A stretch of DNA of 64,000 nucleotides from Escherichia coli. Lineage in GTDB: Bacteria; Pseudomonadota; Gammaproteobacteria; Enterobacterales; Enterobacteriaceae. Shown one piece after another: positions 61,959 to 62,055 of the stretch. The position numbers and the translations under genes are program-made. The notes beneath the pieces were generated by a model. It searched no databases and was not told the DNA's origin. It saw only the letters and a program-made list of their open reading frames with translations. The stretch's first letter is position 1, and every line of letters begins with the position of its first letter. The stretch lies in the NCBI RefSeq assembly GCF_003334335.1, contig NZ_QOWQ01000027.1; one strand, 5' to 3'.

Positions 61959-62055
61959 GCTCTTAGTATACACTTGGTATACTAATTGGTATATTTAGCT
62001 CAATACACACTAGGTACATTGTTCTCTTTACGATTTATCGCTATACCGATGAATT

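Follow-up and report, generated by a model that had tools for sequence, protein, structure and literature searches.

The palindrome downstream of serT in the DNA analysed here, a stretch of 64,000 nucleotides from Escherichia coli (the window), is formed by two of three TTGGTATA repeats in the phage arm of a serT prophage attachment (att) site, and the repeats probably serve as arm-type (P'-like) sites for the phage integrase, Int. That the repeats are bound by Int and not by another protein is suggested by analogy and by the co-variation of motif and protein in about ten integrases.

The sequence AGTATACACTTGGTATACT is found at 61965-61983, letter for letter as it was first described (AGTATAC-N5-GTATACT), and the inverted repeat is in fact longer, with perfect 9-nt arms TTAGTATAC and GTATACTAA at 61963-61971 and 61977-61985. 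The main pattern is one of three direct repeats, TT(G/A)GTATA, which begin at 61963, 61974 and 61986 with spacings of 11 and 12 bp and which read, with their flanks, cTTAGTATAC (from 61962), cTTGGTATAC (from 61973) and aTTGGTATAT (from 61985). Repeat 1 makes up one part of the palindrome; the rest comes from repeat 2, through its self-complementary GTATAC, and from the three bases 3' of it. The additional GGTATA pointed out at 61988-61993 is also present, as part of the third copy. The features of the region are listed below by window coordinates.

61830-61917, plus strand: serT, tRNA-Ser(UGA) (ARAGORN; Rfam tRNA, 57.5 bits)
61858-61917, plus strand: 60-bp identity block CGGTCTTGAAAACCGG...CCGCCA, common to serT and the displaced fragment at the int end
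61862-61868, plus strand: anticodon loop CTTGAAA, within serT
61918-61960, plus strand: phage-borne 3' flank of serT, including an intrinsic terminator (stem at 61925-61950 followed by a T-run; terminator scan)
61921-61933, plus strand: match (AATCAAGGGGTTA) to the IHF consensus WATCAANNNNTTR, between core and repeats and overlapping the terminator stem; a consensus match only
61963-61985, no strand: palindrome TTAGTATAC-ACTTG-GTATACTAA with an N5 spacer (inverted-repeat and fold analysis)
61963-61970, plus strand: repeat 1, TTAGTATA, at +98 from the centre of the anticodon loop; proposed Int arm-type site
61974-61981, plus strand: repeat 2, TTGGTATA, at +109; proposed Int arm-type site
61986-61993, plus strand: repeat 3, TTGGTATA, at +121; proposed Int arm-type site
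61997-62055, plus strand: cargo-specific leader of the YkgJ-like gene, not common to espV-type or ETEC4073-type prophages
62056-62406, plus strand: YkgJ-family cysteine-cluster protein, 116 aa, the first cargo gene, outside the att site

As the initial annotation had remarked, the stretch upstream of the YkgJ-like open reading frame (ORF) is rich in A+T (67% for 61959-62055 vs 49% for the whole window); the ORF starts at 62056, 62 nt past repeat 3. Perfect inverted repeats are common in the window: 82 have 7-nt arms with spacers of 0-10, where shuffled sequence gives ~44, and 12 have 9-nt arms, where it gives ~3. A shuffle test on the specific palindrome sequence looks striking but sets the wrong null, and the count of all inverted repeats was used instead. 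The size of the palindrome is unremarkable alone; what exceeds chance is the 8-mer motif. Exact TTGGTATA occurs four times in the 64-kb window on both strands, with two of the four in the triple repeat, and twice in a 47-kb locus that is mostly prophage (L004), where one of the two lies in the int-side arm. All five copies in the 7.4-kb locus of Escherichia phage Evi lie inside its attP.

The setting of the repeats is a prophage and not an island, as had been supposed. The gene order was read in E. coli UCPROB-002, to which the window is 100% identical, and a lambdoid prophage of ~50 kb is located there between serT and yccA. From the serT side it carries a YkgJ-family gene and genes for a hypothetical protein and a YadA-like adhesin, then tail fibre, lom and J, followed further toward yccA by Q, replication genes, exo, an excisionase gene (DUF4224; PHROG excisionase) and a tyrosine integrase gene. 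Thus xis-int adjoin yccA, and the tail-fibre and cargo genes adjoin serT, ~50 kb off. The prophage is full-length, with a frameshift in the tail gene gpJ. Its cargo (the ykgJ-like gene, the 181-aa protein and the YadA-like trimeric autotransporter) spans 62056-64000 and runs on into locus L001 to ~15088; of 5426 complete E. coli genomes, only 6 have this combination. The cargo ykgJ has ~80% DNA identity to the chromosomal ykgJ, of which it is a second, diverged paralogue. The 181-aa protein, earlier described as LuxR-type, has no Pfam domain, LuxR/GerE included, and matches only PHROG 6585 (function unknown). A stretch of ~100 bp just past the YkgJ-like ORF, at 62376-62482, has 97-99% identity to sequence beside or under IS256-family transposase genes in E. 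coli plasmids, and may be a mobile-element end or scar in the prophage cargo.

Both junctions of the prophage can be followed. In E. coli K-12 MG1655 and B1172 the site is unoccupied and serT is directly followed by yccA; the comparison with the K-12 spacer that the initial annotation had called for was made, and the repeats are absent from the serT-yccA spacer (attB) of both strains. In the prophage-bearing chromosome a second copy of the 60-bp block (~L004 36314-36373) lies between int and yccA, running from the anticodon stem to the CCA-proximal end of serT and followed by the native K-12-type terminator. An identical 60-bp block is contained in the attP of phage Evi. When aligned to the empty sites of B1172 and K-12 and to other prophages, the terminator beside the intact serT in the window is homologous to the host's yet diverged, with the flank departing from the empty site from 61922 onward. 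Since the diverged terminator stands at the window serT and the native one at the int end, the 3' part of serT and the terminator beside it come from attP. Judged by these alignments, the serT 3' part (from the anticodon stem) and the terminator are phage-borne and the host copy is displaced to the xis-int end. The serT of the window would therefore be a hybrid with a host 5' part and a phage-supplied 3' part, as indicated by the host copy found at the int end. The palindrome does lie just after a serT terminator (hairpin 61925-61950 and T-run), as had been described, but this terminator is the phage's copy and not that of the host.

This arrangement is that of a tRNA-gene site of the anticodon-loop class, with an intact tRNA gene and a 3' fragment at opposite ends of the element, and with a block of identity from the anticodon stem-loop onward. 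A regenerated target with a displaced fragment is described for the anticodon-centred class of tDNA att sites (PMC4383910), and the site is placed in this class because its block begins at the anticodon stem-loop. The crossover must lie inside 61858-61917 and, by analogy with such sites, most likely falls in the 7-nt anticodon loop at 61862-61868, which is flanked by the symmetric anticodon stem; the block being identical at both ends, the sequence gives no finer placement. In lambda terms the window junction is of BOP' type, consisting of the host serT 5' half, the overlap and the phage arm. The suggestion that the palindrome belongs to an integration or recombination site is thus upheld, but it is not a remnant, as the arm is intact and the ~50-kb prophage full-length, nor does it mark the boundary itself, which lies at the crossover ~100 bp upstream of the repeats, within serT.

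The undivided site can be seen in phage Evi (LR597642.1), in which the int stop, CTTGGTATA, the serT 3' fragment, the terminator and CTTGGTATAAaCTTGGTATACcaaTTGGTATAT are all on one molecule. In order, this attP consists of the int stop, the palindrome CCAGAAAATTTTCTGG, gaCTTGGTATAtta, a minus-strand IHF consensus match, cTTGGTGTTA, the 3' 60 nt of serT, a plus-strand IHF consensus match that overlaps the terminator, CTTGGTATAAaCTTGGTATACcaaTTGGTATAT and an espV fragment. The same arrangement is found in the IMG/VR contigs L025/L134, L045/L087, L115 and L120. In the window prophage the int-side arm carries TACTTGGTATACTA, which contains exact TTGGTATA, at -118 from the centre of the anticodon loop, and the weaker TTGGTGTT, matching at 6 of 8 positions, at -74. 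The motif is therefore present in both attP arms, with three copies on the serT side and one exact and one 6/8 copy on the other, and it is unrelated to the core.

The 7.4 kb of Evi hold just two perfect matches to WATCAANNNNTTR, one on each side of the att core, where 0.34 would be expected; these are consensus matches only, at which IHF may be predicted to bind. At the corresponding position the host terminator reads AGATAAGGGGTTA and has no IHF consensus match (61918-61960 vs L003 4219-4262). The expressed serT thus uses a phage-supplied terminator with a perfect IHF consensus, AATCAAGGGGTTA, unlike the host AGATAAGGGGTTA. In addition, a perfect A+T-rich palindrome, (C)CAGAAAATTTTCTG(G), is located directly after the int stop and before the int-side TTGGTATA (L004 36169-36182, L005 ~4268-4283) and conserved throughout the E. 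coli lineage.

The integrase of the prophage has 339 aa, in which Pfam calls the catalytic domain only. In a phmmer search it aligns with lambda Int (PDB 1z1b, E = 1.4e-19) over residues 1-318 against 1-339, and the alignment takes in the N-terminal arm-binding domain, including MGRxR...LPP...NGY...LGR. To compare arms more widely, viral contigs were scanned with a serT 3' 33-mer for phage-borne terminators and arms. A triple direct repeat of TTGGTATA, TTAGAATA or AAGAATA stands at an equal distance past the phage-borne terminator in many lineages, and the matching motif recurs in the other arm. The integrase of the sister lineages, 55-72% identical to that of the window, is encoded directly past the triple repeat on the opposite strand; int was not found upstream of the tRNA fragment in these lineages, and a two-sided search located it beyond the triple repeat.

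With the window's Int as reference, the first 75 alignment columns, in which the N-terminal domain is contained, were compared with the rest of the protein in ~10 integrases. The TTGGTATA-type integrases (L113, L103) are 62-63% identical in the N-terminal columns and 61-65% elsewhere. For the TTAGAATA type the values are 49-57% and 75-76% (L092, L127), or 46% and 57% (L112), and for the AAGAATA-type integrase L114 they are 38% and 62%. Across these ~10 integrases, the similarity of the N-terminal domain appears to follow the repeat motif and not overall relatedness, as would be expected if this domain reads the repeats. An integrase-based scan of IMG/VR recovered few arms, because most contigs go no further than the int stop codon. 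Two that extend past the gene (L080 and L081, with integrases 76-77% identical) have no serT fragment or motif downstream and are uninformative.

Relative to int, the att cassette of L113, L103, L092, L127, L124, L112 and L114 has the reverse orientation of that in L004/L005. In the non-E. coli lineages the minus-strand int ends ~25-1000 bp beyond the triple repeat, beside the intact tRNA. The E. coli serT phages have int next to the other arm, and so the prophage has the opposite chromosomal orientation. A flip of the att cassette between sister lineages would imply that the att module can invert as a unit. Four further loci (L086, L098, L094, L110) have a tRNA fragment between arms of unlike motif families, for example AAGAATA upstream and three TTGGTATA copies downstream, and are probably hybrid junctions of tandem prophages at serT. 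A different form of the motif is seen in one IMG/VR contig (2778261065_000020; L064/L109), where CCTGGTATAT replaces CTTGGTATAT in both arms and the serT-side arm has a single repeat copy after a chimeric terminator (host-type 5' part, phage-type stem); L069 also has the int-side CCTGGTATAT form.

The 12 distinct three-repeat arms compared yield 36 copies of the motif; base by base, TTGGTATA is retained in 35-36 of the 36, and the flanks vary; the A at position 3 of repeat 1 is unique to that repeat. The base 3' of TTGGTATA is C in only 9 of the 36 copies, so the GTATAC self-complementarity behind the dyad is not a conserved feature, and the dyad is missing from arms of other lineages, for example GTTGGTATAGTG-TTGGTATATTCAC-TTGGTATATTT. 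Prophages of the ykgJ, espV and ETEC4073 (tail-fibre-assembly) types have a common sequence through TTGGTATATTT, which ends at window position 61996, and then diverge. As homology ends right after repeat 3, the functional arm would end there too. Of the 5426 complete E. coli genomes, 742 (~14%) have the phage-type junction with near-identical repeats next to serT; 6 are identical to the window, 34 have 95-99% and 702 have 90-95% identity, mostly Shiga toxin-producing E. coli (STEC). In O157:H7 and phage Evi the repeats are followed by an espV fragment, and no ykgJ cargo is present.

The likeness to phage lambda is close. Lambda Int is heterobivalent, its N-terminal domain binding arm-type sites in P and P' and its C-terminal domains binding the core, and sites for IHF, Xis and Fis lie between them, the bends bringing arms and core together (PMC4880445). 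Lambda attP has P'1-P'2-P'3 in tandem, P1 and P2 in the P arm and the IHF sites H1, H2 and H' (PMC4880445). As in lambda, the Int of the serT phage is homologous over its full length, including the N-terminal arm-binding domain, and xis is upstream of int; a short non-core motif forms three tandem copies in one arm and is found in the opposite arm as well, with IHF-consensus matches, which are candidate IHF sites, in between. This anatomy matches the lambda scheme point by point, and for this reason the repeats are taken as P'-like arm-type sites. The arm-type consensus of lambda is C/AAGTCACTAT, unlike the motif of the serT phages, which is TTGGTATA. A further difference is that the core is within a tRNA gene, which places ~95 bp of tRNA 3' half and terminator between the core and the arm sites. 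Unlike in lambda, the int of the E. coli serT lineage adjoins the other arm, and binding of Int at the repeats is a prediction only.

The site also resembles elements at the anticodon-loop sublocation of tRNA genes (Islander, PMC4383910; Williams 2002, cited there) in having an intact serT, a 60-bp 3' fragment and an encoded tyrosine integrase. Nothing essential differs from these elements; int stands on the side of the displaced fragment, and the tRNA also gains a phage terminator. serT is a documented prophage site in STEC, with tandem insertions included (PMC8767318, PMC10132054). The serT lambdoid prophages of STEC and phage Evi share the att core, the phage-borne terminator and the triple repeat with the window, their Int being 96-97% identical in protein and their DNA 91% identical across the xis-int-arm region. 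Sp4/CP-933M of O157:H7 is presumably one of these prophages. The cargo at the arm differs, being espV/tccP2 in the STEC prophages and Evi and the ykgJ-like gene, the 181-aa hypothetical protein and the YadA-like adhesin in the window, and three base differences in the window arm perfect the dyad. The literature found gives serT as an integration locus only, with no attP or arm sites of serT phages; TTGGTATA as the arm-site motif of this integrase group is absent from the literature searched, and the kind of att site is already known.

Taken together, a lambdoid phage has integrated into serT through Int-mediated recombination, most likely across the anticodon loop. The attP brought the 3' 60 nt of serT with its own terminator, by which the tRNA gene was regenerated. 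The three tandem TTGGTATA repeats, ~100 bp beyond the crossover and roughly one helical turn apart, would be sites for the small N-terminal domain of a lambda-family integrase, equivalent to lambda P'1-P'2-P'3, and their partners in the other arm would be TTGGTATA at -118 and the weaker TTGGTGTT at -74. IHF-type bends on either side of the core could then fold the arms back, such that each Int monomer would span one site in the arm and one in the core. The symmetry of the dyad is incidental, because copy 2 holds the self-complementary GTATAC and three flanking bases happen to match in the ykgJ sublineage.

Some observations sit less comfortably with arm-type sites for Int. The E. coli int adjoins the one-site arm, unlike in lambda and the sister lineages, where it adjoins the three-site arm; the second int-side site is weak (6/8); Pfam is silent on the arm-binding domain; and the four loci L086, L098, L094 and L110 join arms of unlike motif families, probably through tandem prophages. 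It is conceivable, though unlikely, that the repeats in the att arm bind the excisionase (DUF4224/PHROG) or another DNA-bending accessory protein. An excisionase gene is present upstream of int, the Xis sites of lambda are likewise tandem direct repeats about one helical turn apart (head-to-tail X1-X1.5-X2; PMC4880445), and in the E. coli lineage the three repeats occupy the int-distal arm, as the lambda Xis sites do. Xis sites occupy one arm, however, and TTGGTATA is in both; furthermore, in sister lineages the triple repeat abuts the 3' end of int, like lambda P'1-3, and the motif family tracks the N-terminal domain of Int.

An operator for a dimeric regulator at the promoter of the YkgJ-like cargo gene, which the initial annotation had proposed with the nearby LuxR-type protein as candidate, is very unlikely. 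It would account for the perfect 9-nt dyad being confined to the ykgJ sublineage and identical there despite ~10 SNPs in the leader, and a weak sigma-70-like match (TATACA-17-TATATT, 61967-61995) overlaps the palindrome and its repeats and would read into the ykgJ leader. However, att function would explain just as well why the repeats are conserved, and the motif recurs 50 kb away beside int. The dyad itself is unconserved (the C in 9 of 36 copies, no dyad in the non-E. coli arms), and the proposed regulator has only PHROG matches of unknown function in place of a LuxR/GerE domain. Presence of the sequence in strains without the accessory genes had been named in advance as the observation that would tell against an operator, and near-identical repeats do occur beside serT in such strains (742 genomes with the repeats vs 6 with the cargo), with other cargo and in a free phage that lacks the ykgJ, 181-aa and YadA genes. 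That the sequence has no specific function, being an A+T-rich chance palindrome or a roleless RNA or DNA hairpin, is just as improbable. Palindromes of like size are common in the window, as counted above, the predicted RNA hairpin (-10.3 kcal/mol, z = -2.3) is only moderately better than shuffles and Rfam reports the tRNA only; against this, the 8-mer is near-invariant in 36 copies over diverged arms in which flanks drift, and the repeats hold a fixed position past the terminator in many lineages, with the motif again in the other arm. Two other candidates were rejected. For an RNA element, sub-threshold Rfam hits to MicX, ctRNA and BjrC68 are noise and the hairpin is weak; for an intrinsic terminator, the scan finds the upstream hairpin at 61925-61950 only, and the palindrome stem is A+T-rich and has no T-run.

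Within the reading as Int arm-type sites, the perfect form of the palindrome is seen in the ykgJ-linked sublineage only; ~40 of the 742 genomes have an identity of at least 95%. Compared with the common arm, the ykgJ-type arm has G>A in repeat 1, the mirror change C>T after repeat 2 and A>C at the end of repeat 1, and these three base changes convert an 8/9 quasi-palindrome into a perfect 9-nt dyad. The dyad then stays identical within the sublineage while the downstream leader gathers ~10 SNPs. No intermediate between the Evi-type and the window-type arm (TTGGTATAA...GTATACTAA allele) was present among the four genomes examined. The perfect dyad may reflect drift, a quasi-palindrome template-switch mutation or secondary regulatory use, and two mirror substitutions with a third change, overlapping a promoter-like element, could be a hint of selection for symmetry. 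A bolder proposal, in which the arm sites of this sublineage have a second role (a dimeric repressor or cruciform acting on the cargo gene) or arose by template-switch mutation, and in which the att module is invertible, is decidedly unlikely.

For annotation, the findings mean that the true prophage boundary is to be set inside serT, most likely at the anticodon loop, and not past the terminator, and that the expressed serT would carry a phage-supplied 3' half and terminator. They also offer TTGGTATA as a testable arm-site motif for an integrase group that ~14% of the complete E. coli genomes have, among them those of O157:H7 and further STEC, in which the serT prophages carry effector cargo. 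This is ordinary phage biology, which leaves current understanding unchallenged. The sister integrases with their TTGGTATA, TTAGAATA and AAGAATA repeats would provide a natural series for studying how arm-site specificity evolves in lambda-family integrases.
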